This document shows positions 23,368 through 38,816 of a DNA stretch of 46,387 nucleotides, in pieces. The translations under genes were made by a program, and so were the position numbers. Every line of letters starts with the position of its first letter. Within the stretch, counting starts at the first letter, position 1. Source of the stretch: Microthrixaceae bacterium (GTDB taxonomy: Bacteria; Actinomycetota; Acidimicrobiia; Acidimicrobiales; Microtrichaceae); assembly GCA_020439285.1 (NCBI GenBank), contig JAGQSZ010000002.1, forward strand, positions 3,917 to 50,303, written 5' to 3'. The notes beneath the pieces are model-generated. The model saw only the letters and a program-made list of their open reading frames with translations. It did not search any database and was not told the origin of the DNA.

Positions 23368-24561
23368 TCAGCCCTGGTTGTTCTTTCGTGCCCCCGAAGA
23401 CTTGTTCGAGGCGGTCTCTTTGTCGGATTCCAAGCGCTTCACGTCATCAGCTGTGTTCTCGGTCGATTCAGAGTTCAATTCGGCAGAAGCGCCCTTCAGG
23501 TCTTCAACTGTGCTGGTGGACTGCTCGTAGGCTTGCTTTGCAGCGGTCAGGTCCTTCATTGCTGACTCGTGCTTCTTTGATAGTTCATCGACTGTCCGGG
23601 CCAGGTCTGCTTCTTTGTCCTGCAGATTCGAGAGTGTCTTCTTGGACTCTTCGACCCGTGCCTTTGCATCAGCAAGGGCTTTCTCGGCCGCTGTTTGCTT
23701 GGTCTGAGCTGCTTGGACCTTCGACTTGCCCTTCTTGCCGGTGGCCTGCTTCTTGGCTGTTTCGAGTTCCTTGGTCGCCGCGTCGTAGGCCTTTTCGGCA
23801 GTCGTCAGACCTTCTTGGGCGGACTTGTACTCGCTCTTTGCCTTATCGACGGCTGCGATGACTTCCTTGTGCTTCACGATTGTCTCATCTAGTTGGCTTC
23901 GCACAGACTCGTCCCTGGCCTGTGCTTCCTTGAGTGCGCTAGTGGCCTTGTCCTGATCACTCGAGGCCGCCTTGAGCTTCTCTTCATAGGCCTTACGATC
24001 AGCCTCGCTCATCGTGTCGGCGTTCGCTGCCTCATTTGCAGCAGCAGCCTCTTTGGCTGACTTCTCCGCATCTATCCGTGCAGCCTCGGCCTTCTTCTCC
24101 TCATCTGCCCGAGCTGCATAAGCAGCTTCGGCACGAGCCTGGGCCTCTGGACCGATGAAGACTTCCATCGGGTCGGAGAGCTCGGTACATGGTCCCGGTG
24201 TCGTGTCGACCGGGAACCGGATCTGGCGGCATGGATCGGTGCTTCCCAGGCGTCGGGCCTGAATCACTACTGATTCTGTTGTCATATCACCGACTGTGAA
24301 GGTCAGGTTCTGGGTGTTCTTGACTGGCAGTGCCAAAGCATCGATCTCACGGAAGCTCGACAATCCCTCCAGGATCATCTGCGCCTCAGCTGCCGTTGCG
24401 ACTGCCCGCAGGGACTCATCGAGTGCCACGACTTGGGCCTTCTCTCGAATCTTGCCGACGCTCATGACGGTCACACCACTCAGCACTCCCAGAACCGCGA
24501 TGGTCACAAGAAGCTCCAAGAGTGTGAAGCCCGCTTGCGACCTCACCCTGCGAGGGTGCAT
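23368..24561 (-). CDS. Prepilin-type N-terminal cleavage/methylation-domain protein with ~260-aa Ala/Lys/Glu-rich coiled-coil C-terminus
   Basis: Class III signal MHPRRVRSQAG|FTLLELLVTIAVLGVLSGV (Gly -1, Phe +1, Glu +5). A small ~110-aa globular part is followed by a long heptad-like region. ATG 24561 is preferred; 24633 is an alternative. Confidence 0.75.
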   Translation of the reverse strand: MHPRRVRSQAGFTLLELLVTIAVLGVLSGVTVMSVGKIREKAQVVALDESLRAVATAAEAQMILEGLSSFREIDALALPVKNTQNLTFTVGDMTTESVVIQARRLGSTDPCRQIRFPVDTTPGPCTELSDPMEVFIGPEAQARAEAAYAARADEEKKAEAARIDAEKSAKEAAAANEAANADTMSEADRKAYEEKLKAASSDQDKATSALKEAQARDESVRSQLDETIVKHKEVIAAVDKAKSEYKSAQEGLTTAEKAYDAATKELETAKKQATGKKGKSKVQAAQTKQTAAEKALADAKARVEESKKTLSNLQDKEADLARTVDELSKKHESAMKDLTAAKQAYEQSTSTVEDLKGASAELNSESTENTADDVKRLESDKETASNKSSGARKNNQG

Positions 24562-24802
24562 GAACGATTGATATCCGGTCCTCGTGGTCTCAACCGAATG
24601 GAATTGTGGGATGTGTTGCGCGGCTGTGCCCATGCACGATAAATCGACGCCATCGCTTGACTACTTGAAAATGGACGCAGATGTGATCCATTCGGCCTAG
24701 CCCGGGGCCTAGGACTGATACGACAAGCCAGCCACAGGGGGTGACGGGGATCTCGGTGCGGAGTGCATCGAGTCTGCCCTACCATCAACCGCACCACTTC
24801 TC

Positions 24803-24840: not shown

Positions 24841-26994
24841 ATGTCGATAGCGATCACAGAGGACCACAGAGCGCTCGCGGAGACGGTCGCCAGTTTCCTC
24901 GCCAATCGAAAGGCACTGCTCGCCGCACGGGTATTGCTCGATTCCGAGGACGAACCAATGACCGAGTTGTGGCCCGAGATGGTTGGCCTCGGTTGGGCAG
25001 GACTGCACATTCCGGAGCAGTACGGCGGTTCGGGCTTCGGTCTGGAAGAACTCGTCATCGTTGTCGAGGAGACCGGACGCACCGTGACTCCGGGCCCGCT
25101 TGTTCCGACAGTCATTGCGAGCGCGGTCATCAACTCTGCTGCCGATGAGGCGACCAAATCACGGTTGCTACCCGGACTCGTCGACGGATCAGTCACCGCA
25201 GGCATCGGGCTCGAAGGGTCTGTCGTGGTCACCGCTGGCAAGGCCTCGGGTTCAGCAGGCACCGTGCTCGGCGGAGGTCTGGCCTCTCTCATCATGGTAC
25301 CGGCTGGTGACGACGTGGTGATCGTCGACGTCGGCGCTGGCGTCACGGTGGAGAATCCGCCGAACCTGGATCCGACGCGGCGATCATCTCGAGTGACACT
25401 CGATGGGGCTGCCGCAACCGTTATCCCCGGTGGACGCAGGGCACTCACGGATCTGTCCCGCCTGATTCTCTCGGCTGAGGCTGTCGGAATTGCGGGGGCC
25501 TGCACCGACCACGCTGCTGCGTATGCCAAGGAGCGTGTGCAGTTCGGTCGTGTCATCGGAACCTTCCAGGCAGTCAAGCACCACTGCGCCAACATGGCAG
25601 TGGCGACCGAGACGTCCACCTCGGCTGTCTGGGACGCTGCAAAAGCAGCCGCCACGGGCGGTGACATCTTCACCTTCACCGCCGCTGTCGCCGCCACACT
25701 CGCTGGACCCGCTGCTGACCTGTGCGCCAACTTGAACACACAGGTCCACGGCGGAATCGCAATTACGTGGGAACACGACGCTCACCTCTACATGCGCCGA
25801 GCGATCGTGCTCGAGAGCCTGCTGCGCCCAGACGTAGCGGCCGAGGATCTAGTCGATCTGGGTCGACGGGGAATCAGTCGAGGCAAGCAGATCGAACTAC
25901 CACCAGAAGCTGACTCGATCCGTGAAGAGGTCCGGGCGTTCATCGAGACCATCAAGGATCTGTCGCCCGAGGACCGCACAGCGAAGCTCGTCGAAGCGGG
26001 CTACATCTACCCCCACTGGCCCAAGCCCTATGGCCGCGAGGCGGGAGCCATCGAGCAACTCGTTATCGAACAGGAATTCGGCGAGGCGCAGATCGGTCGA
26101 CCGAACCTGGGAATCACGGCTTGGAACATCCTCACACTCATCCAGCATGCGACCCCCGAACAGGCCGCCCGCTGGGTCCCACCAGCATTGAACCGCGAGG
26201 TCATCTGGTGCCAGCTCTTCAGCGAGCCTGACGCTGGTTCGGACGCAGCCGGTGTCAAAGCCAAGGCCACCCGTGTTGACGGCGGCTGGCTCATCAACGG
26301 GCAGAAGGTCTGGACATCTGGAGCACACGAGTCGAGCTTCGGCCTGGCAACAGTGCGCACTGATCCCGATGCCCCCAAGCATGCTGGGATCACCACTGTT
26401 GTCATCGACATGCATGCAGAGGGCGTCGAGGTGCGGCCACTCAAGCAGACGACCGGCGCCTCGGACTTCAACGAGGTCTTCTTCACCGATGTGTTCGTTC
26501 CTGATGACGATGTCGTGGGGCCAGTCGACGGCGGTTGGACAGTAGCCCGAGCGACCCTCGGCAATGAGAGCGTCAGCATCGGCGGTGGCGGCGACGGGAT
26601 GTCCTATCCCCCGTTGATGCTGATCCCGGCCTATGACGACCACCCAGACCGTGTCGATGGAGGCGCCGCAAGGATCGGCCGATATATGGCGCTGCATCAA
26701 GCCATGGGACTGCTGAATCTGCGCGCAGCCAACCGTGCAGTCGCGGGCGCCGGTCCAGGCCCCGAAGGCGCGATGACCAAGCTGATTCTCTCCGAGCTCG
26801 GTCACGAGGCAGCTGCCCTACTCGCAGAGTTGAACGGCCCGGACACCGCGTTCATCGACGGTGTGGGGGCAATCAACTACATGTTGATGATGATGCACCG
26901 TGGTATGTCGATTGCTGGTGGTACCTCGGAGATCAAGCGCAACCAGATCGGGGAACGCATCCTGGGTCTGCCGCGGGATCCGCTGATCAAGTAG
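24841..26994 (+). CDS. Fused tandem acyl-CoA dehydrogenase (two ACAD modules in one 717-aa chain)
   Basis: The N-terminal half is ACAD-like (LHIPEQYGGSG..., ...HGGIAITWEHD). The C-terminal half is a full ACAD (CQLFSEPDAGSD, WTSGAH, GGTSEIKRNQIGERILGLP). Confidence 0.85.
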   Translation: MSIAITEDHRALAETVASFLANRKALLAARVLLDSEDEPMTELWPEMVGLGWAGLHIPEQYGGSGFGLEELVIVVEETGRTVTPGPLVPTVIASAVINSAADEATKSRLLPGLVDGSVTAGIGLEGSVVVTAGKASGSAGTVLGGGLASLIMVPAGDDVVIVDVGAGVTVENPPNLDPTRRSSRVTLDGAAATVIPGGRRALTDLSRLILSAEAVGIAGACTDHAAAYAKERVQFGRVIGTFQAVKHHCANMAVATETSTSAVWDAAKAAATGGDIFTFTAAVAATLAGPAADLCANLNTQVHGGIAITWEHDAHLYMRRAIVLESLLRPDVAAEDLVDLGRRGISRGKQIELPPEADSIREEVRAFIETIKDLSPEDRTAKLVEAGYIYPHWPKPYGREAGAIEQLVIEQEFGEAQIGRPNLGITAWNILTLIQHATPEQAARWVPPALNREVIWCQLFSEPDAGSDAAGVKAKATRVDGGWLINGQKVWTSGAHESSFGLATVRTDPDAPKHAGITTVVIDMHAEGVEVRPLKQTTGASDFNEVFFTDVFVPDDDVVGPVDGGWTVARATLGNESVSIGGGGDGMSYPPLMLIPAYDDHPDRVDGGAARIGRYMALHQAMGLLNLRAANRAVAGAGPGPEGAMTKLILSELGHEAAALLAELNGPDTAFIDGVGAINYMLMMMHRGMSIAGGTSEIKRNQIGERILGLPRDPLIK

Positions 26995-27077
26995 GTCATT
27001 AGTGCCGCCGTTCGGTCGCCGTCGGCCCCATTGGGTGGCGTGGAGGCACCGGACGGCGGCCTGCGTGTGTATCACGG

Positions 27078-27128
27078 CGAACTTTGTGGAGTTCTGGTTG
27101 CCCACCAACGCGAACTCCACAAAGTTCG
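27078..27128. terminator. Perfect 17-bp stem / 17-nt loop hairpin between convergent genes
   Basis: CGAACTTTGTGGAGTTC-(17 nt)-GAACTCCACAAAGTTCG. A second, smaller hairpin, CGGGCC-GGACTA-GGCCCG, lies at 27151-27168. There is no U-tract. Confidence 0.5.
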
Positions 27129-27179
27129 GGCTGGTGGAGCGGGCGAGGACCGGGCCGGACTAGGCCCGCGTCGACTCGC

Positions 27180-27959
27180 TCAGAAGACCACTGTCGCTGC
27201 GTTGGCGACCGCAATGAGAACCAGCGTGACTGCAAAGGCTTGGGCCGACCGCTTCGGATCAAGTCGCTTGGCAAGCAACGCTCCGCCCATGCTGCCAATG
27301 AGCATGGGAACAGTGAATGCACCAGCAGTTGGCCAGTCAACTGAGTCCACTCCTCGGACAACCATTGCAACTGCCGCATTACCGGCAATGACAGCAAGCG
27401 AGGTCGCTACCGATTCGGGCATGTCCAAGCCGATGAATATGGCGAGCACGGGGACGATCACGAAGCCACCACCGACCCCGAACAGTCCCGTTAGGAACCC
27501 GACCGTTACACCCGCAACGGCGAATACGAGCATTCGCTCTGCTAACGGTGTGCTCTTGGACAGCCTGTCTGGGGAAGCCGCTCTGTAATCGGAGGTGGCG
27601 ACCTCTACGTTGGATGCGAACATCCGGTAGGCGGCCAGAAGCATCAACATCGAGAATCCAATCAGCAGCCATCCTCCGTCTATGCGGCGACCGAGTGCTG
27701 CACCGGCTATTGATCCAAGTGCTCCGGCTGTAACGAACCAAGCCGTTATATCCCACCGAATGTGGTTACGGTGCCCCGACGAAAGTGCTGCCACCAGAGC
27801 AGCTGCACCGACTGCCACCAACGAGGTCGCCGTGGCTTCGTGAACGCCCAGTCCAAGAATGTGGACCAGGACCGGCACTGCCAGTATCGACCCTCCGGCC
27901 CCAAGGGCACCCAAGGTCAAACCGATGATCGCTCCGAAGAGCACCGCCAGAATGATCAC
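27180..27959 (-). CDS. TauE/SafE-family sulfite/organosulfonate exporter
   Basis: 259 aa, about eight TM helices, Gly-rich repeats (LGALGAGGSILAVP, GLFGVGGGFVIVP). ATGA overlap with the upstream gene. Confidence 0.8.
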   Translation of the reverse strand: MIILAVLFGAIIGLTLGALGAGGSILAVPVLVHILGLGVHEATATSLVAVGAAALVAALSSGHRNHIRWDITAWFVTAGALGSIAGAALGRRIDGGWLLIGFSMLMLLAAYRMFASNVEVATSDYRAASPDRLSKSTPLAERMLVFAVAGVTVGFLTGLFGVGGGFVIVPVLAIFIGLDMPESVATSLAVIAGNAAVAMVVRGVDSVDWPTAGAFTVPMLIGSMGGALLAKRLDPKRSAQAFAVTLVLIAVANAATVVF

Positions 27960-29398
27960 TGGACAGGAGTCACCAGACAGGTTGCATCGACACCGAGAGC
28001 CATCGCTCCACCGAGCACGTCAGAGACGTCGGTAAACCCATTTGCCATCAACAAGCTGCTAGCGATTGCCGAGCGGGCACCGCCTGCGCAGACCAACACG
28101 ACTGGCTCATCGGGTTTCAACGTTGTCAGCTCAGCACTCAATCGAGCGAGGGGAATGTTCTGTGCCCCTTCCACCTCAGCATCTTCGACCTCCCCCGGAT
28201 TCCGTACGTCAATGAACTGCAATCGATCGCCGAGGGACTCACGACGTTCTGCCAAGTCTGCTGCGGTCAGACGAGACATGCGATCAGCCCGATCCGGGTG
28301 GGCAGCGAGCACGGAGGACACATCAGCCAAAACGCCGACAATCCGATCGAAGCCAATTCGAGCGAGTCTTGTGCGGGCCTCAGCGGCTGCAGGTGCGTCA
28401 CCGACGAGCACCACCTCGGCCCCAAATGGCACGACACTGCCTACCTGTTCGGCAAATCTTCCGTCCAGGCTGACATGGAGCGAGCCAGACAGATGCCCGG
28501 CTGCGAACTCGTTGACTGGACGAGTATCAACGACCGTCGCTCCCCGACTGACGGCGGAATCCACTTCAGCAAGATCAAGCACGGTCACCGGCTCGGTCTC
28601 ATCGAGCAAAGGCCGGTCCAGACGGTTCAGTTTCGCGTCATGACCGAAATAGCCCGGGGCGGCGGGTTGCCCCTCGGTGACAATCTCGATGAACTGTTCT
28701 CTGGTCATTGTCGGGGCGAGCGCGTAGTTGGTATCTCTTTGCACACCAATTGTGGACACGGTCTCGCTCGATAGCGACTTGCCACAAGCAGACCCTGCTC
28801 CGTGTGCCGGCAGAACCAGCGTCTCAGCAGGTAGGCCTGCCAGCCTGTTGACTGAGTCGAAAAGCCTCGAAGCCAGTTCGGCCGCCGGAATATCCGCAGC
28901 TACCAACAGGTCCGGGCGGCCGACATCGCCGATGAACAACGCGTCACCCGTCAGCACCGCAATAGGAGGTTGCCCATGCCCGACATGGATCACCAAGGAG
29001 ATCGATTCGGGGGTGTGCCCTGGAGTTGACCAGACCTCGATTTGAACGTTGCCGAGGTCAATCACCTCACCGTCACGAAGGGCACGGGATGGAAATTCGG
29101 TGCTCGCTGCCTCTCCGTAACCGATCTCGGCTCCGGTAGCATCCGCCATCTCCAAGTGTCCCGAAATGAAGTCTGCGTGGAAGTGAGTCTGGACGACCAA
29201 CTCGACCTTCAGGCCTTCAGATGCTGCAACCCCGAGCACTTCATCGATGTCACGTCGCGGGTCGACAACGATCGCCCGACCCGTGGAGCGGTCACCGACT
29301 AGGTACGCCGCCTGGGACAGACAGCCCAAGTAGAACTGGTGGATTACGAGGGGTTCGGTCAGGCCTTCGAGCGATACCGAGGATTGTGTGTCTGTCAT
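27956..29398 (-). CDS. CstB-like persulfide dioxygenase (MBL fold) fused to two rhodanese domains
   Basis: MBL motifs HFHADFISGH, TPGHTPES, GDALFIGDVGRPD. The middle rhodanese lacks Cys. The C-terminal rhodanese has the active loop VCAGGARS. Confidence 0.85.
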   Translation of the reverse strand: MTDTQSSVSLEGLTEPLVIHQFYLGCLSQAAYLVGDRSTGRAIVVDPRRDIDEVLGVAASEGLKVELVVQTHFHADFISGHLEMADATGAEIGYGEAASTEFPSRALRDGEVIDLGNVQIEVWSTPGHTPESISLVIHVGHGQPPIAVLTGDALFIGDVGRPDLLVAADIPAAELASRLFDSVNRLAGLPAETLVLPAHGAGSACGKSLSSETVSTIGVQRDTNYALAPTMTREQFIEIVTEGQPAAPGYFGHDAKLNRLDRPLLDETEPVTVLDLAEVDSAVSRGATVVDTRPVNEFAAGHLSGSLHVSLDGRFAEQVGSVVPFGAEVVLVGDAPAAAEARTRLARIGFDRIVGVLADVSSVLAAHPDRADRMSRLTAADLAERRESLGDRLQFIDVRNPGEVEDAEVEGAQNIPLARLSAELTTLKPDEPVVLVCAGGARSAIASSLLMANGFTDVSDVLGGAMALGVDATCLVTPVQ

Positions 29399-29496
29399 GG
29401 TCCTGTTCCAATCTCTGGTCCCGGTAGGCGGCTACCAGAATCCTTCCCTGTTATTGGGTTCCGATGTCGGGCAGGTGCTTGAACACACACCGCACC

Positions 29497-29537
29497 GTAT
29501 ACCCCATGGAGTATAGCGTATACCCCAAGGGGTATAC
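29497..29537. promoter_or_regulatory. Two tandem CsoR/CstR-type palindromic operators
   Basis: Site 1 is GTATACCCCATGGAGTATAG (29497-29516). Site 2 is GTATACCCCAAGGGGTATAC (29518-29537, perfect 9-bp arms). Their centres are 21 bp apart, in the divergent intergenic region between 29398(-) and 29589(+). Confidence 0.7.
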
Positions 29538-29588
29538 AGATCACGGGGCTACATACGGCTGACCAACGCGATTAGGTTCATTGCCACG

Positions 29589-30128
29589 ATGTCCAACCCA
29601 TTGCTTTGGCCCTACGACGATCTAATCCATGCCTACTGGGTAGAACCACGATCGATCCTTGCCGGCGAGTATCCGGGAAATGCTGACCCGATGAAAGCAC
29701 GGACCAAGATCGAGTTGCTTTGCGACAACGGCATTCGAACCTTCATTGACCTGACCCAACCAGCCGATGGTCTAACGCCTTATGACTCCACACTGGATGC
29801 CGTAGGACTGAGTCGCGGGGTGGATCTCGTTCGAATCCCCCACCCGATCCCGGACATGGGTGTCCTGCCCACCAATCAGTACGACGACATCCTCGAAAGC
29901 GTGCATCGATCCGCTGACAATGGTGGCGTCTACATCCACTGCTGGGGAGGCATAGGCAGAACCGCAACCGTCGTCGGATGCCTGTTCGTCGAAATGGGTT
30001 TGAGTGGAGAGGGCGCCATGCGAACGATCAAGGAGCGTCGGGCGGACACGCGTAAGGCCAATATGCGAGCACCCCAGACACACCAACAACGAGACGTCAT
30101 CTTCCAACGGGCCGCGAAACGGCCATAG
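29589..30128 (+). CDS. Cys-based (CX5R) dual-specificity / protein-tyrosine-phosphatase-like protein
   Basis: P-loop signature VYIHCWGGIGRTATV (HCxxGxxRT). 179 aa. Confidence 0.75.
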   Translation: MSNPLLWPYDDLIHAYWVEPRSILAGEYPGNADPMKARTKIELLCDNGIRTFIDLTQPADGLTPYDSTLDAVGLSRGVDLVRIPHPIPDMGVLPTNQYDDILESVHRSADNGGVYIHCWGGIGRTATVVGCLFVEMGLSGEGAMRTIKERRADTRKANMRAPQTHQQRDVIFQRAAKRP

Positions 30129-30313
30129 GCCCGACCTGCACTCGAGTTGCCGCACGCGCCTGACATTCAACCCGGTCGTCGGGTCCGATGAGTCCCGGTT
30201 CGATTAATGCGACGGCATTCTGGCCCGATACCGGAATACCATGTGTGGCGGTCGAACCCAGGGGGCCAGGGGGGTCAACGGGCAGGGTCGACCCCCGACG
30301 AAAGCGAGCAGCC

Positions 30314-30751
30314 ATGACTACGGTTCTCCGTCAAATTCCCGCATCTGCGCAGACTCTCCTGGGCTCTGACGCACTCGCCCATGTCGTGACTCTGGACCGC
30401 AACGGACTACCTCAGGTGTCCGTCGTTTGGTGCGGGGTCCGAGACAACGACGTCCTGTTCTGCACCGAGGGAGGTTCGGCCAAGGTCCGCAACATCAAGC
30501 AGAATCCTCGGGTCGTTCTCTCGATCGAGGACGAAATGCGTAACGCTGCAGGCACCCAGCATCATCTGGTCATCCATGGCGTTGCAGAGGTCCTAGGACC
30601 AGTGGACCCTGAACTATGTGACCAACTGTGCGCCGTGTACGCGGGTCACCGTGACCATCCGATAAACCTCCGCAAGTCTCCGACTGCTGTGACAGTCGCC
30701 GTTCACGTGGAGAGGATCGGCGGCAACGGCCCTTGGGCACACGGGGACTGA
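30314..30751 (+). CDS. PPOX-class (pyridoxamine-5'-phosphate-oxidase-like) probable F420-dependent enzyme
   Basis: LAHVVTLDRNGLPQVSVVW...KVRNIKQNPRVVLSI, typical of the split-barrel PPOX/F420 class. Start at ATG 30314 (MTTVLRQ). Confidence 0.7.
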   Translation: MTTVLRQIPASAQTLLGSDALAHVVTLDRNGLPQVSVVWCGVRDNDVLFCTEGGSAKVRNIKQNPRVVLSIEDEMRNAAGTQHHLVIHGVAEVLGPVDPELCDQLCAVYAGHRDHPINLRKSPTAVTVAVHVERIGGNGPWAHGD

Positions 30752-30769
30752 TTGAGCGTCCAACTCGAA

Positions 30770-31681
30770 TCAGCGAAGCATCTCCACACGACGAGCACAC
30801 GCTTGGGTGAATAGGTCCTCTGCTCCCGCAGACAGAGACAAGAACAACGAGGGCTCGAACAGTTCTGCCTCGATGAGGGCGACTGTTCCGTCGTCTAGTT
30901 CGACCATGTCGAATCGGCCATAAAGTGGCATGGCACCGTCGGGCAGCCAGTCACGCTCCCGTGCGATCTCTGTGGACGCGCGAAGTGCGCTATTAGCCAC
31001 GTCCAATTCGACATCTGTTGGCTGATGGAGGCTGACGTTCTCCTGATAAACACCCCCGATCAGCCCGCCACCTTTTTCAAGGATCGGCCCCTTGCGAAGA
31101 CAGTGAGACAGCGCGCCATCAAAGAAGACAGCCGAGATCTCTCCAACTGTTGCGACTGAGGAGACGAAGGGTTCCACGATCACCTTCACACCCTCGGTGA
31201 GAATTTCATGCGCCAGGCCGAGCGCTGCTGGATCGTCTGCGACGAACCACCCGGTCAAACGACTACCGGCAGATACGACAGGCTTGATCACGGCATCGGT
31301 CGAGCCGAGTGCATTCAACGCCGCGGCAACTTGATCGATATTTTCGGCAACCACGGTCCGAACAACTGGAACTCCCCGCGATTCGAGTTCCAAGAGATAG
31401 CCCTTGTCGAGATTCCAGCGAATAAGTGCTGCCGGGTTCTGAAGCTGACCCAGGCCAGCGACCCGGTCGAGCCAGGCGAGGAACTCCGCTGAGCGCGTCG
31501 CGTAGTCCCATGGCGATCGGATCACGACGAGGTCATATGCATCCCACTGGACTGTCGGATCGGTCCAGTAGCGGTACTCGAGATCAATTCCGCGCCGAGC
31601 GAACGACGCCTCATGAAACGGACGGTCGACATCCTCATCCCGAATGTGGTCACCTTCTGCAGTTACGAACGCTACGTGCAC
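30770..31681 (-). CDS. ATP-grasp ligase (RimK/glutathione-synthetase-like)
   Basis: 303 aa. Pre-ATP-grasp N-domain (YDLVVIRSPWDY...FLAWL), central IKPVVSAGS, and C-terminal ...GRFDMVELDDGTVALIEAELFEPSLF resembling the Mg-ATP site. Confidence 0.6.
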   Translation of the reverse strand: MHVAFVTAEGDHIRDEDVDRPFHEASFARRGIDLEYRYWTDPTVQWDAYDLVVIRSPWDYATRSAEFLAWLDRVAGLGQLQNPAALIRWNLDKGYLLELESRGVPVVRTVVAENIDQVAAALNALGSTDAVIKPVVSAGSRLTGWFVADDPAALGLAHEILTEGVKVIVEPFVSSVATVGEISAVFFDGALSHCLRKGPILEKGGGLIGGVYQENVSLHQPTDVELDVANSALRASTEIARERDWLPDGAMPLYGRFDMVELDDGTVALIEAELFEPSLFLSLSAGAEDLFTQACARRVEMLR

Positions 31682-31786
31682 ACACCATTGTTAGTTCACC
31701 TGCGATATCTCAGATCAACTCGCCGGCCAGAGGGGGTTCCCTAGCTACAGGACGGTGACATGCCGTGACATCGCCCGGATCTACAT

Positions 31787-31802
31787 ATACCCTATGGGGT
31801 AT
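31787..31802. promoter_or_regulatory. CsoR/CstR-type operator (third copy)
   Basis: ATACCC-TATG-GGGTAT. The extended ATATACCCTATGGGGTATGT overlaps ATG 31801. Confidence 0.65.
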
Positions 31803-31959
31803 GTGTTCACGTGTGACTTGCCCAACCTGTAATCGTCCTACATTCGCTGGGTGCGGTATGCATGTCGAGCAGGTGCTCGGCGATGTGCCGCCGGCCGAAC
31901 GCTGCCAATGTGGAACCAACCCCGCGCCTTCCAGCGCACAGCACCAAAGACGTCGCTGA
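31801..31959 (+). CDS. Small Cys-rich protein (52 aa; 6 Cys, CPTC...GCG.H...CQC)
   Basis: MCSRVTCPTCNRPTFAGCGMHVEQVLGDVPPAERCQCGTNPAPSSAQHQRRR. An alternative GTG start lies at 31765. It sits immediately downstream of, and overlapping, the operator. Confidence 0.55.
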   Translation: MCSRVTCPTCNRPTFAGCGMHVEQVLGDVPPAERCQCGTNPAPSSAQHQRRR

Positions 31960-31964
31960 ACCCG

Positions 31965-33314
31965 GTGACGAATTCCCAACCAGCGTCATTTGACGGATCC
32001 AAGGACGACGCCGCTCAACGTCGAGTCATCAGGACCTTGGTCGGGGCCCAAATACTTTCGGGTGCAGGCCTCGCTGCCGGAGTCTCGGTGGGCGCCCTGC
32101 TGGCTCAGGACATGTTCGGATCGGAGGGACTCGCCGGCGTTCCTGCCGCGTTGTTCACCATTGGCTCGGCAGGTGCCGCTGTAGCAGTCGGCAGAACATC
32201 AGACCGCCACGGGCGAAGGCGTGGACTAAGTCTCGGGTATGCGACCGGAGCTTTGGGAGCAATCCTGATAGTTGCGGCAGCAAGCATTGGTTCAACCGCA
32301 TTGCTGTTGCCATCACTGTTGATATACGGCGCTGGAACTGCAACCAATCTTCAGGCCCGATACGCCGGAGCTGACCTAGCGACGCCCGAGCACAGCGCTC
32401 GAGCCATAAGCACCGTCCTGGTAGCCACGACAATTGGTGCCGTGGTGGGGCCGAACATGATTTCCCCCATGGGCAACCTCGCTGAGGCCGTCGGAGTCCC
32501 GCGACTTGCAGGGCCATTCCTTCTCGCAGCTGCCGCCTATGGGCTCGCTGCCGTAGTACTTCAAACACGCCTGCATCCCGATCCGCTTCTGCTGGCACGC
32601 GAGCGAGCATTGAAATCGGCCGAGGCGATTCCGGTTCAAGTGACAGGACATGATGCGGATGGGGCTCATGCACCAGATGGAGCCGCTGCGCATTCAGTCG
32701 GGGATAGACCATCCCGCGAGTCAATGCAGCGCAGGGTTCTACTCGGCGGATTCGTGATGGTGGTCGCCCAGATCGTCATGGCAGCAATCATGACCATGAC
32801 GCCGGTCCACATGCGTGCCCACGGGCACGGCCTGGCTGCGTCCGGTGTAGTCATCGCCGCTCATATCGCCGGCATGTACCTACCCTCTCCCCTGACGGGC
32901 CGCCTCGTCGACAGATTCGGAGCATCCGCAATTGCGATCGCGTCCGGCGTCACACTCGCGATCTCGGGCCTGATGGCCGCAGCCACCCCATCCTCATCAG
33001 TAATCGGACTCGGGGCGGCACTTACAGTCCTGGGCCTCGGGTGGAACCTGGGCCTGTTGAGCGGCACCTCGATTGTCACCGACGCGGTTCCCATCGAAGT
33101 CCGTGCACGTACACAGGGGTCGGTCGATCTGTCCATTGCGATCGCCGGCACAACAGGGGGCCTCGGCTCGGGTGTCGTCGTGGCGTCGAGTTCCTATCCG
33201 ATGCTTGCGATGGTCGGAGCCGTGATCGCTATCGCCGTCCTTCCGATAGTCGCGTTCACGACTCGCTCGCCACGCAACGACCGGGTCAGCCGTGCTGCCA
33301 GATCCTCTGTTTGA
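31965..33314 (+). CDS. MFS transporter (12-TM type)
   Basis: Hydrophobic profile with the GRTSDRHGRRRG loop between TM2 and TM3 (MFS motif A-like). The start is uncertain: GTG 31965 lies 6 nt after the small-ORF stop, ATG 31908 is an alternative, and the ORF-track 31851 is an over-extension. Confidence 0.8.
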   Translation: MTNSQPASFDGSKDDAAQRRVIRTLVGAQILSGAGLAAGVSVGALLAQDMFGSEGLAGVPAALFTIGSAGAAVAVGRTSDRHGRRRGLSLGYATGALGAILIVAAASIGSTALLLPSLLIYGAGTATNLQARYAGADLATPEHSARAISTVLVATTIGAVVGPNMISPMGNLAEAVGVPRLAGPFLLAAAAYGLAAVVLQTRLHPDPLLLARERALKSAEAIPVQVTGHDADGAHAPDGAAAHSVGDRPSRESMQRRVLLGGFVMVVAQIVMAAIMTMTPVHMRAHGHGLAASGVVIAAHIAGMYLPSPLTGRLVDRFGASAIAIASGVTLAISGLMAAATPSSSVIGLGAALTVLGLGWNLGLLSGTSIVTDAVPIEVRARTQGSVDLSIAIAGTTGGLGSGVVVASSSYPMLAMVGAVIAIAVLPIVAFTTRSPRNDRVSRAARSSV

Positions 33315-34326
33315 GCGTCCGCTGCCCTTCTAGTGCCACAGCATCGATCCGCTCGGTTTGCTCCGGAGTCAATCCCCAACCGAGGGCGCCAGCGTTCTGA
33401 GCTGCCTGAGCGGCGTTCTTCGCTCCGGGGATCGGTACCGCTCCCTTTTCGATGATCCAACGCAGGGCAACCTGCCCCGGGCTCCGCGTACCATCACCTG
33501 CGCCGTCGGCTGTGCCCATCCCACGGAGTTCGGTACCGATCTCGCGCAGCACTTGAACGACCGGATCGACCTGGTCCATCGGGAAAGCCGAGAACGACCT
33601 CTTGCCCGGCGGCGGATTCGAAGCCGAGTACTTTCCGGTGAGTCTCCCTTGGCCAAGTGGAGAATACGCGAGTGGCAGAACGCCCAGCTCACGACAGGCG
33701 CCTATGAGCCCGGAAGTCTCCGGTCGCCGACGCAGCGGTGAGAACTCGATCTGATTCGACGCGAGGGCAATGCCACGCTTGGCGAGTTCGGTGTGGATCT
33801 TGGTCATCTCGCTAACGGAATAGTTGGATACGCCTACTGCCGCCACCAGACCCTCCGAACAGACCTCAGCCAAAGCCTCGGCCAACGCCCCATGTGACCG
33901 CAGGCTTATCGGACCGTGCAATTGATAGAGGTCGATCTGATCGATACCGAGCCGTTCGAGCGAACCAACCGCTGCCTTACGCAGGGCGGCTCGAACATTC
34001 AGCTTCTGTGGAGATGGAAAGAACTTCGTTGCTATTACAACGTCGTTCCTCTGTGACGGGTCATTCGCCAGGAGGCGGCCGATGATCCGTTCGCTCTCCC
34101 CTCCGCCGTAGACCTCGGCGGTGTCGAACAGGGTTACTCCACCAGCGATGGACGTCTCCCATGCGCGCTCTATCGACTCCTGCGAGAGGTTGGCGTCGTA
34201 TCCGCCCATGCCCCACACATCCCGGTCGCCCCACGCCCATGTCCCAACTCCGAGTGGAGCGAACGATTTGGAGCATCCCGGAAATTCCACCAATGCGTTT
34301 CGGTCGTCGGTCTCATCAGCGGCCAT
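33286..34326 (-). CDS. Aldo/keto reductase
   Basis: LGVGTWAWG, FDTAEVYGGGESE, IDLYQLHGP and a C-terminal ...VPIPGAKN. The start is uncertain (ATG 34326 or 34338). The 3' end overlaps the convergent MFS by 29 nt. Confidence 0.85.
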   Translation of the reverse strand: MAADETDDRNALVEFPGCSKSFAPLGVGTWAWGDRDVWGMGGYDANLSQESIERAWETSIAGGVTLFDTAEVYGGGESERIIGRLLANDPSQRNDVVIATKFFPSPQKLNVRAALRKAAVGSLERLGIDQIDLYQLHGPISLRSHGALAEALAEVCSEGLVAAVGVSNYSVSEMTKIHTELAKRGIALASNQIEFSPLRRRPETSGLIGACRELGVLPLAYSPLGQGRLTGKYSASNPPPGKRSFSAFPMDQVDPVVQVLREIGTELRGMGTADGAGDGTRSPGQVALRWIIEKGAVPIPGAKNAAQAAQNAGALGWGLTPEQTERIDAVALEGQRTLKQRIWQHG

Positions 34327-34368
34327 GCCAACAAGCATGGCCGGACACACAACCAACGCCGGGGATTC

Positions 34369-35187
34369 TCACGCCTTGCCGGATGCCCTAGTCGTCACCC
34401 GACCGATCAATCCAGACCTCCCAGGCATGACCCGACACATCAAATCCACGAACCTGGCGTCTGGCCCTACGACTGTCCTGGCCCGATCGTGTTCTATTGC
34501 TTTGACGATCTTCGACGCAGCAGCAGACGGCGGCCGCATGACCAGTGGAGCAAACCTGGACTTGCCCATCGTCGCGAGTTTGGCTGATTCGGTTCCCCTG
34601 GCGGTGTTGGTGATGTTGGTTCGGATGGCTCCGGGGAACACTGCGGTCACCCCGATATTGGTGGTGATCAGCTCCGAACGCAGAGCCTCCGTGAAGGACC
34701 TGACGGCTCCCTTGGTGAGTGAATACGACACGTTGTGGCCGAGCCCAAGCAGCCCGACCATGCTCGACAGGTTGACGATGTGGGCTTCTTCGGCCTGGCG
34801 GAGCAGAGGCAGAAAAGCCCGACAGCCGTGCACGACTCCCCAGACATTGATGTCCATGATCCAGTTGAGGTCTTCGAGCGTTTCGTCCTCGAATGCCCCA
34901 GCGGAGGTGACTCCGGCGTTGTTGATCAGGATGTGGCACGCTCCGTGCTCACTCTCTACCTCGCCAGGTAGCTCTCCGATACGCATTGCGTCGCGGGTGT
35001 CGGCAACGTGGACACTTGCTCTCTGACCGCGGCGGCGCACCTCATCGGCGGTTTCATTCGCGCCGGTCTCGTTGATATCGACCACGGCGACGGCGCAGCC
35101 ACGCTCAGCCAACAGGAGCGATGTGGCGCGACCGATCCCACTGCCGGCGCCTGTTACGACTGCAGTGCGGCCAGCGAGTCGTTTCAT
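34369..35187 (-). CDS. SDR-family oxidoreductase
   Basis: TGAGSGIGRA, NNAG and YSLTK. The ATG overlaps the upstream TGA by 1 nt. Confidence 0.85.
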   Translation of the reverse strand: MKRLAGRTAVVTGAGSGIGRATSLLLAERGCAVAVVDINETGANETADEVRRRGQRASVHVADTRDAMRIGELPGEVESEHGACHILINNAGVTSAGAFEDETLEDLNWIMDINVWGVVHGCRAFLPLLRQAEEAHIVNLSSMVGLLGLGHNVSYSLTKGAVRSFTEALRSELITTNIGVTAVFPGAIRTNITNTARGTESAKLATMGKSRFAPLVMRPPSAAASKIVKAIEHDRARTVVGPDARFVDLMCRVMPGRSGLIGRVTTRASGKA

Positions 35188-35630
35188 CACACGTCTCCCG
35201 GTTCGAGCACGAACAGAGGAATGATCCGGTCGGTGGACGACTGATAGACGTCGTAGTCAGACCACACGCTGGTGGCCAATTCCCACCACGTGGCCTTCTC
35301 TTCCGCATCGGTTACTTCGCGTGCCACGTACTCGTTGACCTGCGCACCGTCACGCAGTTGCACCCGAGGCTCAGCGCGCAGGTTGTAGACCCATTTCGGA
35401 TTGTTGGGCGCTCCGCCAACAGAACCGATGACCACGTAGTTGGTTCCGTCGGTTACGCGGATCAGCGGCGTCTTGCGAAGATTCCCGCTACGGGCGCCGA
35501 TGCTGGTGAGTATCACGCAGGCGCCTCCCATGAAGTCGCCGCCTTCAACACCGTCGGTGCTTTCGTAGAGTTCGACCTGCTCGGCAATTGGTTCCCATGG
35601 ACTCGGCTCGTACTGACGATCGAAAATCAT
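35187..35630 (-). CDS. Ddn-like deazaflavin (F420H2)-dependent nitroreductase/quinone-reductase family protein
   Basis: ILTSIGARSGNLRKTPLIRV...VIGSVGGAPNNPKWVYNLRA..., the hallmark of the PF04075 family. Confidence 0.85.
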   Translation of the reverse strand: MIFDRQYEPSPWEPIAEQVELYESTDGVEGGDFMGGACVILTSIGARSGNLRKTPLIRVTDGTNYVVIGSVGGAPNNPKWVYNLRAEPRVQLRDGAQVNEYVAREVTDAEEKATWWELATSVWSDYDVYQSSTDRIIPLFVLEPGDV

Positions 35631-35722
35631 CCCACCCTCCTGGTCGCTGCCATCCGGAATTCGGTCAGCAGAACATGTGACGAGAGCATACGGCCACGGG
35701 GCGATCTGTACCCCGCCAGCAC

Positions 35723-36241
35723 TCAGTCGATCGCGCGCTGTGCAAGTTCTTCGACCAACTCGGCAACCATCTCCGAAGGTGGGCCCGGCAACCCGAGCAG
35801 AGCACTGAGATACAGGCCGTTGCCCACCACTTGAACAACCGAGCCCAGATAGGGATCAAGAGCCTCGAGCGGTTCATACAGCCGTTCCAGAGCAGAGCGA
35901 ATGAGTCCGTCGGACCCGGTGTCGTTCGCGTGAAGCGCAGCGAGTAGCGAATTGAAAGTTGTTGCCTCTTCAGGTCCTTGGATCTCATATGCGAGGTACC
36001 AGCGCACGATCTCTGCAGGGTCGCTCGGAGCGTCGCTGACCAGCGCATCGACCCGCTGATGGAGCCGTTCCCCGAAACCCTCCATCAACGATTGTTTCGA
36101 CGGGAAGTGGTACAGCAGTCCCCCCTTGGACACATTCGCATGCTTTGCAACGGCGTCGAGGGTCACGTTGCTGATCCCACCGGACACCACCAAAGTCTCG
36201 AACGAGTCGAGTATCCGCTCACGGTTGGACGGTCGAGCCAT
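35723..36241 (-). CDS. TetR/AcrR-family transcriptional regulator
   Basis: HTH region VTLDAVAKHANVSKGGLLYHFPSKQSL. It lies 6 nt downstream of the MFS stop, with a GGAGGG RBS. Confidence 0.9.
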   Translation of the reverse strand: MARPSNRERILDSFETLVVSGGISNVTLDAVAKHANVSKGGLLYHFPSKQSLMEGFGERLHQRVDALVSDAPSDPAEIVRWYLAYEIQGPEEATTFNSLLAALHANDTGSDGLIRSALERLYEPLEALDPYLGSVVQVVGNGLYLSALLGLPGPPSEMVAELVEELAQRAID

Positions 36242-36247
36242 TTGAGG

Positions 36248-37795
36248 TCAACCCTCCCCAGCGCCGGGTCGCTGTCGAGCATCTACGGGTTCGCCGGACA
36301 CCGATGGGTTCTTGCGAACAGCCGCTGCAGTCCACACGGTAACCGCTGCAAGGGCCAGAGTGGCGATGAGCGCCGCCGTGTGCAGGCCAGAGACAAAGGC
36401 CAGTTTCGCCCCGTTGACCAACACTCCTCCAACCTCGGAAGGCAACTTCTCAGCCGCAATTACAGCCGCTCCAAGTGTCTCGCGCGCAGCCTCTATCGAA
36501 TTTTGTGGCACCCCTTGGATCTGATCGATACGCGGTCGGTACACCGCTGTCAGGACACTACCGAGCAGCGCTGTGCCGAGCGCGATACCCAGTTCGTTAC
36601 TGGTCTCGGACACCGAGGCGCCCGCTCCCGCTCGTTCAGGTGGGATGACCGACATGATGCCGTCGATGGCCACGGTCATCGCCATGCTGAGTCCTCCGTA
36701 GGCGCCGGCGATCGCGAGAGTGGTCAGCGCAATCGGACCTGTTAGATCAACGATCATGAAGGTCGCGAAACCGATCGTTCCAAGCGCTAGTCCCACGGTC
36801 ATAACTTGGAATGGGCCGGTTCGTCGGACCAACGCTGGCGCTGCCAGCATCATGACGATCGCGGCGACCACCGCAGGCATCAGTTGGACACCGGACCGCA
36901 GCGCCGACATCCCGAGCACGAGTTGGAAGTACTGGGTGATGAAGAACAGGCCGCCGGCGAATCCGAACGAGGCGACCAGATTCGCGACAATCGCTCTGCG
37001 AAAGCCCGGAATGGCGAAGAGCCTTGTATCGATCATCGGGTCCGCCAGGCGGCGCTGACGAACCACGAACGCGGCCCCAGCCGACGCACCGATCACCAGC
37101 GCCAACAAACCGACCCGGTCGATTCCGCGCTCGGCAGCCATTTTGATAGCGAAGATCGTTGGGATCATCGCGACGATCGACAAAGCAGAACTGGGGATAT
37201 CGAAACGGCCCGGCGAGGGGTCCCGTGATTCGGGAACGAGGCGGGGCCCCAGGATCTGCAGTGTCACAGTGACTGGTACACCGACCAGGAACACAGACCC
37301 CCACCAGAAGTGGTCCAACAGCAGCCCACCGATGATCGGTCCGACTGCTCCTCCGATGGCGAATGAGGCTGCCCAGATCGATATCGCTACCTGCCGTTCC
37401 TGGGGATTGGGAAAGATGTTGCGAATGAGCGACAACGTGGACGGCATGAGGGTCGCTCCCGAGAACCCCAGTAGGGCTCTCGCTGCGATCAACGCTGATG
37501 CGCTCGGAGCGAACGCTGCCATAACCGAGGTAGCGCTGAACGCGGCCGCACCGATCATCAGCAATCGCCTTCGACCGATTCGGTCCCCGACCGAACCCAT
37601 CGTCACCAACAGACCAGCGAGAATGAACGAATAGATATCCACTATCCACAGAAGCTGCGAACTGGTCGGCTCGAGCGATTCAGAGAGATGGGGAACGGCG
37701 AACCCGAGCATGGTGCCGTCCATCGAGATGATCAGCACCGGAAGCACAAGGACCGCGAGAGCCTGCCATCGTCGTTCGTGGATACCGGGACGCAC
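36248..37795 (-). CDS. MFS DHA2-family (14-TM, EmrB/QacA-like) efflux pump
   Basis: 515 aa. N-terminus RRWQALAVLVLPVLIISMDGTMLGFAVP, then GSVGDRIGRRR. GTG start at 37795, probably leaderless. Confidence 0.85.
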   Translation of the reverse strand: MRPGIHERRWQALAVLVLPVLIISMDGTMLGFAVPHLSESLEPTSSQLLWIVDIYSFILAGLLVTMGSVGDRIGRRRLLMIGAAAFSATSVMAAFAPSASALIAARALLGFSGATLMPSTLSLIRNIFPNPQERQVAISIWAASFAIGGAVGPIIGGLLLDHFWWGSVFLVGVPVTVTLQILGPRLVPESRDPSPGRFDIPSSALSIVAMIPTIFAIKMAAERGIDRVGLLALVIGASAGAAFVVRQRRLADPMIDTRLFAIPGFRRAIVANLVASFGFAGGLFFITQYFQLVLGMSALRSGVQLMPAVVAAIVMMLAAPALVRRTGPFQVMTVGLALGTIGFATFMIVDLTGPIALTTLAIAGAYGGLSMAMTVAIDGIMSVIPPERAGAGASVSETSNELGIALGTALLGSVLTAVYRPRIDQIQGVPQNSIEAARETLGAAVIAAEKLPSEVGGVLVNGAKLAFVSGLHTAALIATLALAAVTVWTAAAVRKNPSVSGEPVDARQRPGAGEG

Positions 37796-37797
37796 GC

Positions 37798-37829
37798 AGT
37801 TACTATACCGTCTGGTCGGTATAGTAACT
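37798..37829. promoter_or_regulatory. 13-bp perfect inverted repeat with 6-nt spacer overlapping a -10-like TATAGT (candidate TetR operator)
   Basis: AGTTACTATACCG-TCTGGT-CGGTATAGTAACT. On the minus strand TATAGT ends 6 nt before GTG 37795. Confidence 0.65.
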
Positions 37830-37906
37830 AAGAAGTGGTTCTGGCGCGTCTGAACCCATCAACCGCTCCTCCGGTGGAGAAATGAACATTCCTCCGCGCC
37901 TACCTG

Positions 37907-37922
37907 ATACCCTATGGGGTAT
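37907..37922. promoter_or_regulatory. CsoR/CstR-type operator (fourth copy)
   Basis: ATACCC-TATG-GGGTAT. The 18-mer ATACCCTATGGGGTATGT is identical to the copy at 31787-31804. Confidence 0.65.
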
Positions 37923-37958
37923 GTATTCGCAGTATTCCGTCCCATCTAGACCATCGGC

Positions 37959-38177
37959 GTGTTGAACGTCTGCGGGCTCACCCGAATTCTCGTTCCCGCA
38001 TCACTTGCCGGATTGATGGTGTCGGTCGTAACCAGTAGCGACCTGTGGGGATGGGTGGCAGCGGTTGCGCTCGGAGCAGCGCTGGTTCTTGTGGGCCGGG
38101 TCCGCGGGACCCAGACCGCATGCCCTATTCCAACTACCCCGGCAGCGTCTGACCGAAGCAGGTCAACACAGAGATAG
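37959..38177 (+). CDS. Small hypothetical membrane protein (72 aa, two predicted TM helices)
   Basis: GTG start. ILVPASLAGLMVSVVTS and WGWVAAVALGAALVLVG are hydrophobic segments. It is the only plausible ORF in an otherwise 367-nt gap. It overlaps the convergent gene by 15 nt. No SD sequence. Confidence 0.4.
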   Translation: MLNVCGLTRILVPASLAGLMVSVVTSSDLWGWVAAVALGAALVLVGRVRGTQTACPIPTTPAASDRSRSTQR

Positions 38178-38654
38178 CCCGTTCTCTATGAGCGCCCCCG
38201 TGCTCATACGTGCACCCTCGATGTCCGGGTTCGGCGACCACACCGGAGCGAGCGACTCCCCCAGCCCCTTCGACTGTGCCTCAGGGTTAAGGGCATAGGT
38301 TGCGTCGGGCGTCACGAGCGTCACGGCACCGCCAGCGCAACGGAGCGTCCCCTTCTTGATGGTCAGTGGCCAGTCCGCGCCGTAGTCAGAATTGGTGACA
38401 ACCCGACCACCGTCGGATGTGTCAGTACCCGGAAATTCCTTGGCTGCGTTCTTGCCAGTGTTCCCATCGGTGTCTGAGTTGCCACCGATGAGGCTCCCGA
38501 TAGCGAGGCCCACCACCACAACGATGCCAAGGACCACGAGCCCGAGCCCCAAGAGTCGACGCGGATCAACCGAACCCGATCCGTTGCCGTTAGGTCCGGT
38601 CGACCCATTGGCTGGTTGCCTCGTATCGATCTCCGAACCATCGGTGAAACTCAT
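38163..38654 (-). CDS. Membrane-anchored DUF2511 (YebY-like) domain protein
   Basis: N-terminal TM segment (LGLGLVVLGIVVVVGLAIG). The C-terminal domain DWPLTIKKGTLRC...YALNPEA...RMSTGALIENGLSLC matches my memory of the YebY pattern. Confidence 0.65.
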   Translation of the reverse strand: MSFTDGSEIDTRQPANGSTGPNGNGSGSVDPRRLLGLGLVVLGIVVVVGLAIGSLIGGNSDTDGNTGKNAAKEFPGTDTSDGGRVVTNSDYGADWPLTIKKGTLRCAGGAVTLVTPDATYALNPEAQSKGLGESLAPVWSPNPDIEGARMSTGALIENGLSLC

Positions 38655-38679
38655 GCTGGTACCCCCTCACTCACGCCAC

Positions 38680-38699
38680 GAACTCGCCTTGGCGAGTTC
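38680..38699 (-). other. Small perfect stem-loop between the P450 operon end and the DUF2511 gene
   Basis: GAACTCGC-CTTG-GCGAGTTC. It lies 118 nt after the 38817 stop and 26 nt before the 38654 start. No U-tract. Confidence 0.3.
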
Positions 38700-38816
38700 C
38701 CTTCATGTGGCATCTCCTAGCGATGGTCTACACGCATGGATACCCGGATTCAATGGCCCAGTTGATTCACCGGCCCAATTCGACACAGGGTCGGACCACG
38801 ATCCGGACCGTGAATG

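Follow-up and report, generated by a model that had tools for sequence, protein, structure and literature searches.

What reads the four near-identical palindromes that lie in a 46,387-nucleotide stretch of DNA from a Microthrixaceae bacterium (contig JAGQSZ010000002.1; the whole stretch is hereafter the window), and to which signal do the surrounding genes answer when no repressor of the DUF156 family is encoded beside them? An earlier note on this DNA had taken the palindromes for DUF156-type operators that define a local regulon, and had held that the window could not decide between Cu(I) and persulfide as the signal. We propose, with good confidence, that the four palindromes are the operators of a two-Cys, persulfide-sensing DUF156 repressor of the CstR/ScCsoR type that would be encoded outside the window. 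That the regulon is of this known kind, with new conserved members and with its regulator in trans, is well supported. A fusion of persulfide dioxygenase (PDO) and rhodanese together with TauE under a two-Cys DUF156 repressor is not new, and a trans-acting regulator is ordinary; what is new is the comparative view of the further targets of such a sensor in an uncultured actinobacterial class, above all a family of six-Cys mini-proteins.

Four putative operators and their conservation

A pattern search finds exactly four such sites, with the core ATACC-N6-GGTAT, in the window (G+C content 60%). They lie where the earlier note had placed them, in three divergent intergenic regions that span 8.4 kb, and all are in promoter regions:

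29498-29515, no strand assigned: operator site 1, TATACCCCATGGAGTATA, the cstB-proximal half of a tandem pair; 21.1 bits
29519-29536, no strand assigned: operator site 2, TATACCCCAAGGGGTATA, 21 bp from site 1; 25.6 bits
31786-31803, + strand: operator site 3, TATACCCTATGGGGTATG, whose final three bases are the ATG of the mini-protein gene; 31.0 bits
37906-37923, + strand: operator site 4, GATACCCTATGGGGTATG, 35 nt 5' of the gene for a small membrane protein; 26.4 bits

The scores are those of a position weight matrix trained on 18 sites from other organisms only, with the window sites excluded, and are thus independent of the window. The next best position in the window reaches 6.5 bits and the best position in 30 shuffled windows 17.9 bits, while 100 dinucleotide-preserving shuffles of the window yielded zero matches to the pattern. 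The motif is not a generic intergenic repeat of the kind formed by repetitive extragenic palindromes or miniature inverted-repeat transposable elements (REP/MITE-like), the outcome that the earlier note had named as fatal to its own reading: on the DNA available to us, 1.49 Mb of other, unrelated actinobacterial loci, there is no exact site and no matrix score above 12 bits, and the window itself holds only four sites.

The closest homologues of the cstB product come from metagenome assemblies of Acidimicrobiia, and the loci compared are arranged as follows:

L001-L004: CstB 95% identical; syntenic with the window, every site kept, no DUF156 in cis
L008/L009: CstB 83% identical; no DUF156, sites kept
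L010/L011 and L012: CstB 70% identical; SDR, AKR and GNAT genes forward, MFS reverse, one site, DcsG-like gene forward, PTP, thioredoxin (Trx) and DUF156 genes reverse, two sites, cstB and tauE forward
L013: two sites between a reverse-strand DUF156 gene and a forward run of rhodanese, cstB and tauE
L014, the sole island-bearing genome in GTDB: reverse-strand MFS and mini-protein genes, then one site, a forward DcsG-like gene, reverse-strand PPOX and DUF156 genes, and two sites ahead of forward cstB and tauE
L005, a Microthrixaceae metagenome-assembled genome (MAG): cstB-tauE with a convergent DUF156 gene, sites before both

Motif and gene families thus occur together in the relatives, a check that the earlier note had proposed, as the operators recur with cstB-tauE, with DUF156 genes and with the mini-protein. 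The tandem pair lies 99 nt upstream of the cstB-like gene, and tandem pairs with a spacing of 21-23 bp are also found in L001, L010, L012, L013 and L014. Upstream of cstB the two operators are the only blocks conserved across the six lineages compared; a further 5' block is conserved against L001 and absent from more distant relatives. Against L001 the intergenic regions are 80-83% identical overall and the operator arms are intact; for the region of sites 1 and 2 the overall identity to L001-L004 is 82%, with the arms of site 1 conserved. The 16-mer of site 3, identical or differing only centrally, stands in the same register in L001, L008, L010, L012 and L014. The distances of 108-129 nt from site centres to minus-strand gene starts, which the earlier note had regarded as non-random, are correct as arithmetic; they are not meaningful as spacing, because the corresponding distances in relatives vary from about 40 to 188 nt and the conserved relation is that to the plus-strand genes of sites 3 and 4.

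A repressor not encoded in the window and its probable signal

The lack of a DUF156 gene in cis is borne out: tblastn with the DUF156 proteins of relatives gave nothing better than E=2 across the 46-kb window, and Pfam found none among 40 candidate open reading frames (ORFs) of the window, about seven long ORFs lying outside that scan. Three TetR genes are the only regulators among the scanned ORFs, as had been said before, and it could be argued that a non-DUF156 protein, such as one of these TetRs, binds the motif, the more so as a palindrome beside the DHA2 gene (described below) has ATACC/GGTAT inner arms with N8 spacing. We find this barely credible, as the same operators occur in L005, L008, L010-L014, L094 and 37 metagenomic loci, where DUF156 and not an orthologue of this TetR is the recurrent neighbour, and as the DHA2-linked TetR has its distinct, longer palindrome to account for its own binding. 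Nor is the absence of the regulator in cis unusual: 475 of 1248 pdo-carrying Streptomyces genomes likewise have no nearby CsoR-like gene (PMC7533328).

The relatives indicate which regulator to expect. Where CstB is 66-71% identical, a DUF156 gene adjoins cstB at the same operators, and in related lineages the operon that diverges from cstB starts with this regulator. Its own operator lies 16 nt from the start codon in L005 and 5 nt in L010, a geometry of autoregulation. The counterparts of the CX5R phosphatase-like protein, of the mini-protein with MFS and of the small membrane protein are either inside the autoregulated DUF156 operon of relatives or bear operators themselves in relatives with 57-71% identical island proteins. 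A search with the L010 DUF156 protein returned 229 matches; P0281 is a divergent partial gene from an unrelated sample. If the DUF156-first order is ancestral, DUF156 and Trx would have been lost or moved in the lineage that includes the window and L008, leaving PTP-PPOX directly behind the operators. A more drastic version of such a history, in which the regulator was lost from the genome altogether so that the sites are relics and the genes constitutive, appears very improbable to us. It would fit the lack of DUF156 in 46 kb and the disappearance of DUF156 and Trx from the position that they hold in L010, L012 and L014, and the conservation of sites 3 and 4 could partly reflect the promoter and start codon embedded in them. 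Unbound relics are, however, expected to decay as fast as their flanks, whereas the sites are kept in three lineages without a regulator in cis (the window, L001-L004 and L008/L009, with CstB 83-95% identical) between flanks that are 80-83% identical.

The likely signal can be read from the same DUF156 proteins. Those of the relatives carry Cys-x28-Cys with a Gly four residues before the second Cys, which is the position of the Cu-ligand His of CsoR (aligned to 4m1p, 4adz and 7mq1), and all 18 cis-encoded DUF156 proteins at equivalent loci of other organisms have the two Cys, with Gly or Arg at the His position. A DUF156 protein of this x-C-x-C type is encoded at the orthologous position in L005, L010, L012, L013 and L014, and beside the mini-protein gene in L094 and 13 metagenomic loci. 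As the cis-encoded proteins of relatives have two Cys without the Cu-ligand His, and as the recurrent neighbours are of the sulfur type (PDO, rhodanese, SQR-type flavoproteins, TauE and DsrE), we favour persulfide over Cu(I). The earlier view that the two could not be told apart therefore stands for operator geometry alone, and gives way once the sensors and the neighbouring families of the relatives are considered.

A Cu(I)-sensing repressor of the CsoR/RicR type, governing a copper-stress regulon in which the mini-protein is a metallothionein-like Cu sink, is improbable in our estimation. The RicR operator of Mycobacterium tuberculosis, TACCC-N4-GGGTA (site TACCCCGCTGGGTA), has the same spacing (PMC3944814), so that geometry cannot separate Cu from persulfide sensors, and the Cu-responsive RicR regulon also has a Cys-rich mini-protein and small membrane proteins (mymT, lpqS, socAB); it comprises the small metallothionein MymT, a lipoprotein and small ORFs (PMC3944814). 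Both points weigh against the persulfide reading, as does the fact that the overlap of operator and promoter is deduced from a TANNNT-like hexamer only. Among NCBIfam models, too, it is that of RicR which the relatives' DUF156 proteins match best, with 56.6 bits where the cut-off is 175. On the other side, none of the 18 cis-encoded proteins has the His of the C-H-C signature, the targets are a PDO-rhodanese and TauE, and no copA, copZ, multicopper oxidase (mmcO) or metallothionein is present among the 40 Pfam-scanned ORFs of the window. Furthermore, CstR-type proteins without that His are not allosterically switched by Cu (PMC8643695).

The genes that the tandem pair would serve are these:

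27180-27959, - strand: TauE/SafE sulfite exporter (Pfam PF01925, 3.6e-45), with a 4 nt overlap with cstB
27956-29398, - strand: cstB-like PDO-rhodanese fusion of 480 residues (Pfam Lactamase_B and Rhodanese)
29589-30128, + strand: DSP/PTP-fold protein with the loop HCWGGIGR (CX5R; Pfam PTP-SAK and Tc-R-P), divergent from cstB
30188-30751, + strand: F420-dependent PPOX-class oxidoreductase (80.8 bits with TIGR03618, cut-off 79.05), 3' of the PTP gene

The CstB-like protein has full-length PDB matches to 3tp9 (6.8e-82) and 3r2u (2e-61), the latter being the CstB of Staphylococcus aureus, and the cstB-tauE pair is kept in L001-L005 and L008-L014. In the persulfide model that we favour, a tetrameric repressor with reduced thiols would occupy the four sites. 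The tandem pair would control cstB-tauE together with the divergent PTP-like/F420-PPOX operon, site 3 would cover the promoter and start codon of a leaderless mini-protein-MFS operon, and site 4 would serve the small membrane protein. Sulfane sulfur, as persulfides or polysulfides, would modify or crosslink the two Cys and so bring the repressor off the DNA; the PDO-rhodanese would then oxidise persulfide to sulfite, which TauE would export, and the PTP-like/PPOX pair, the mini-protein and MFS, and the small membrane protein would be induced at the same time. We infer binding and signal from the relatives described above and from the precedents that follow.

In ScCsoR, a DUF156 repressor of Streptomyces coelicolor, Cys37 and Cys66 are the residues that sense sulfane sulfur (Lu et al. 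2020, PMC7533328); its 16-bp site, ATACC-N6-GGTAT, occurs twice in the ScPDO/tauE promoter and once in its own, within a circuit of SCO0618 (ScPDO), SCO0619 (TauE), SCO0620 (ScCsoR) and SCO0621 (rhodanese) (PMC7533328). The window shares with this system the 16-bp operator, the two sites before a PDO-rhodanese/tauE operon, the actinobacterial host, the architecture of its CstB (that of SCO0618) and, in its relatives, the autoregulated two-Cys DUF156 protein. This geometry, together with the DUF156 genes found at the same operators in relatives, upholds the assignment of the palindromes to the DUF156 type. The window differs in that its regulator is not beside the operon, in that the tandem spacing is 21 bp and not the 39 bp between the -48 and -9 sites of ScCsoR, and in that it adds operator-bearing mini-protein/MFS, small membrane protein and PTP-like/F420-PPOX units.

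The regulons of CstR in Firmicutes (cstR-cstA-cstB-sqr with tauE in S. aureus, and the CstR proteins of Enterococcus faecalis and Streptococcus mitis; PMC8643695) are alike in their CstB-type PDO-rhodanese and TauE genes and, on the reading proposed here, would be alike in their x-C-x-C DUF156 sensor and in the binding of two tetramers per operator region. The core operator of S. mitis CstR, ATATACCCTTATGGGGTATAT, differs from site 3 solely by one extra central base (PMC8643695). The centre of the window operator is accordingly 1 bp shorter, the window has neither cstA nor sqr, and its sensor would fall in cluster 3 of the sequence similarity network (actinomycete; Fakhoury et al.) as opposed to clusters 4 and 10, an assignment made by taxonomy and motif. 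ScCsoR and M. tuberculosis Rv1766 are grouped in an actinomycete cluster of 3,175 x-C-x-C proteins that are for the most part uncharacterised (PMC8643695). The RicR regulon of M. tuberculosis (ricR, lpqS, mymT, socAB, mmcO and Rv2963; PMC3944814) resembles the island in having a DUF156 repressor that acts in trans on scattered TACCC-N4-GGGTA promoters, with one site shared by divergent genes, and in that its targets include small ORFs, a permease and a small protein rich in Cys. RicR itself, in contrast, is a C-H-C Cu(I) sensor, and the list of its regulon in PMC3944814 has neither PDO nor rhodanese nor TauE.

A six-Cys mini-protein family at the operators

Site 3 runs directly into the reading frame of a small protein that is followed by a transporter gene:

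31801-31959, + strand: six-Cys mini-protein of 52 residues, MCSRVTCPTCNRPTFAGCGMHVEQVLGDVPPAERCQCG..., no Pfam or NCBIfam match, probably leaderless
31965-33314, + strand: MFS transporter (Pfam MFS_1), directly after the mini-protein, 5 nt past its stop codon

The mini-protein follows the pattern MC-x4-C-x2-C-x7-C-x16-C-x-C with an invariant His21. The ORF is kept in six lineages (the window, L001, L008, L010, L012 and L014), its codon changes are mostly synonymous (14 synonymous and 0 non-synonymous differences from L008 over 38 codons), and gene callers left it unannotated in the clade loci with gene tables (L001-L004 and L008-L012). In a phmmer search of 1.84 billion representative proteins it recruits 571 clusters at E <= 1e-3, and the exact pattern [MVL]C-x4-C-x2-C-x7-C-x16-C-x-C is carried by 128 of 158 retrieved family sequences. 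Neither Pfam nor NCBIfam has a model for the family, and its named members are all called 'hypothetical protein'. A literature search for the sequence motif, or for a cysteine-rich small protein in CstR regulons, returned nothing relevant. The AlphaFold model has a mean confidence score (pLDDT) of 79 overall, with residues 1-38 forming a hairpin-plus-helix at about 90, and Foldseek against the PDB gave no significant match (best E = 1.3). By eye we see no resemblance to the sequence of MymT.

Scanning JGI metagenome contigs with the family alignment gave 80 loci (L095-L174). For 37 of these, the last two bases of an exact ATACC-N6-GGTAT 16-mer coincide with the 'AT' of the start codon, and in a further three an exact site lies 30-34 nt upstream of the mini-protein start; the remaining loci lack an operator and have a ribosome-binding site of the GGAGG type, and thioredoxin is often encoded immediately upstream. 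The family therefore shows two modes of expression, the loci with an operator-fused ATG being without a Shine-Dalgarno sequence. Every one of the 37 in-register sites has T at position 7 of the 16-mer, and a single one has A at the palindromic partner, position 10. The resulting TACCCT is a -10 hexamer of the TANNNT type, 7 nt before the A of the ATG. Because this asymmetric constraint creates a -10-like hexamer so near the start codon, we infer that the mini-protein transcript is leaderless and that operator, promoter and start codon are superimposed within 18 bp. A scan for the sigma-70 consensus found 0 promoter-like matches against 3.9 expected by chance and is uninformative for this phylum.

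The genomic context of the mini-protein is, as judged from its neighbours, sulfur metabolism. Within 2.5 kb, Pyr_redox_2 (12), Rhodanese (12), Pyr_redox_dim (6) and Lactamase_B (5) are the commonest families, and TauE and DsrE_2 occur as well. Of the 90 families matched around mini-protein genes, the 25 most frequent include none for copper, which again counts against copper as the signal. A DUF156 gene lies near 12 of the 38 operator-class loci, many contigs being very short, and often directly downstream on the same strand; wherever a neighbouring DUF156 protein could be aligned over both Cys, in 13 of 13 cases, it is of the x-C-x-C type. An Acidimicrobiales MAG (L094) has mini-protein and Trx genes forward, DUF156 reverse, and a SQR-like gene, DsrC and DsrE forward, with an operator that ends in the mini-protein ATG.

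These associations suggest a tentative idea, to which we give no great probability: that the mini-protein is an undescribed integral partner of two-Cys DUF156 sensors, acting as a sulfane-sulfur relay, buffer or co-sensor, leaderless from a promoter and start codon embedded in the operator and, in many organisms, co-transcribed with the repressor. If this were true, a module of two proteins would carry out CstR-type sensing in Acidimicrobiia and in other phyla, and in this clade it would also be wired to a DcsG-like ATP-grasp ligase and an MFS transporter, possibly for the synthesis or export of a thiol-related small molecule. A metallothionein-like role is possible as well. The mini-protein is in any event a concrete candidate for an unrecognised player in reactive-sulfur homeostasis.

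The six-Cys module was also seen at the N-terminus of a 541-residue protein (P0253) that resembles a eukaryotic two-pore K+ channel, and a family member of 80 residues (P0137) is annotated in a bdelloid rotifer assembly. Unless P0253 and P0137 reflect contamination or transfer, the module may exist outside bacteria.

Other members and neighbours of the island

The gene identities given in the earlier note (CstB-like, TauE, CX5R, ATP-grasp, MFS, DHA2, TetR, Ddn, SDR and AKR) agree with Pfam, NCBIfam and PDB matches. Its list of unusual regulon members holds for the CX5R phosphatase-like protein, the mini-protein with MFS and the small membrane protein; the ATP-grasp ligase is only a possible member, and the DHA2-TetR-Ddn-SDR-AKR string a doubtful one. 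The remaining features are:

30770-31681, - strand: DcsG-family ATP-grasp protein of 303 residues, divergent from site 3
33286-37795, - strand: DHA2 MFS-TetR-Ddn-SDR-AKR string (Pfam; Ddn as F420H2_quin_red)
37798-37829, no strand assigned: separate perfect palindrome AGTTACTATACCG-N6-CGGTATAGTAACT, 2 nt from the DHA2 start
37959-38177, + strand: small two-Cys membrane protein of 72 residues, NVCG...RGTxxxC, no Pfam match

The HCX5R catalytic loop of the PTP-like protein is present in the window, L001 and L008. In L010 (8498-9058) and L012 (8519-9055), where the orthologue comes third in a DUF156-Trx-PTP operon that the same operators precede, the loop reads HGREGLGR, with Gly in place of the nucleophilic Cys. 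Phosphatase activity is therefore not a conserved property of this member, since these orthologues are without the catalytic Cys; a different Cys (VVGC, residue 131) is invariant, and the conserved function may be another one. The F420-PPOX gene downstream, which the earlier note did not list, has an orthologue in L014 that stands directly 3' of the DUF156 gene.

The ATP-grasp protein scores 213.9 bits with NCBIfam NF058666, under the cut-off of 360, and precomputed matches give PF27100 (DcsG_N). Its gene is the divergent neighbour of the site 3 operator in all six lineages of the clade, so that membership of the regulon in this clade is possible. As a general member it was rejected, since in 79 of 80 GTDB loci (from Streptomyces, Actinotalea, Acidimicrobiaceae and others) the DcsG-like homologues are accompanied by neither operator nor cst genes. 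For the MFS transporter the likely start is GTG 31965, as compared with the mechanical ORF start at 31851, and its N-terminus aligns to the orthologues of L010 and L012, the match setting in at about residue 55 of the longer frame. In L001-L004 (L001 7265-7720; 95% amino-acid identity) the body of the MFS gene is deleted; the operator and an intact mini-ORF are kept, together with some 100 nt from the 5' end of the MFS gene.

Site 4 probably serves the small membrane protein. Compared by eye, this protein shares N-terminal NVCG...R.L.P and DR[IV]RG...C with proteins of 103 residues in L010 and 101 residues in L012, whose ATG lies inside an operator and whose genes are followed by DUF302. The DUF302 family recurs beside the small membrane protein (L010 895-1611; L012 1-568) and beside mini-protein genes in the operator-bearing loci L095, L109, L132, L147 and L163, and it is absent from the window. 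DUF302 may be a further uncharacterised member of these persulfide regulons.

The palindrome at the DHA2 start has 13-nt arms that are 100% complementary and is conserved throughout in L001 and L002. It probably serves the adjacent TetR (35723-36241) as its operator and would stand outside the DUF156 regulon. Upstream of the SDR-AKR pair of L010 and L012 there is no operator at up to 2 mismatches, and DHA2-TetR-Ddn is absent there. We have left the string out of the regulon because of this palindrome of its own and of the operator-less SDR-AKR pair of the relatives; it is probably under TetR control. The inner arms of the palindrome, ATACC-N8-GGTAT, are those of the DUF156 operator with a spacing wider by 2 bp.

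An Rfam scan of 27000-38700 found no riboswitch or leader RNA and only a sub-threshold miRNA model, mir-2941 (27075-27131, - strand; 32 bits, gathering score 60), in the gap 3' of tauE, which is almost certainly a chance hairpin. Beyond this gap, and apparently unrelated to the regulon, lie a 717-residue protein with two tandem acyl-CoA dehydrogenase units (24841-26994) and an adjoining 421-residue protein with an N-terminal pilin-like methylation motif (23368-24633), both of which are conserved in L001.

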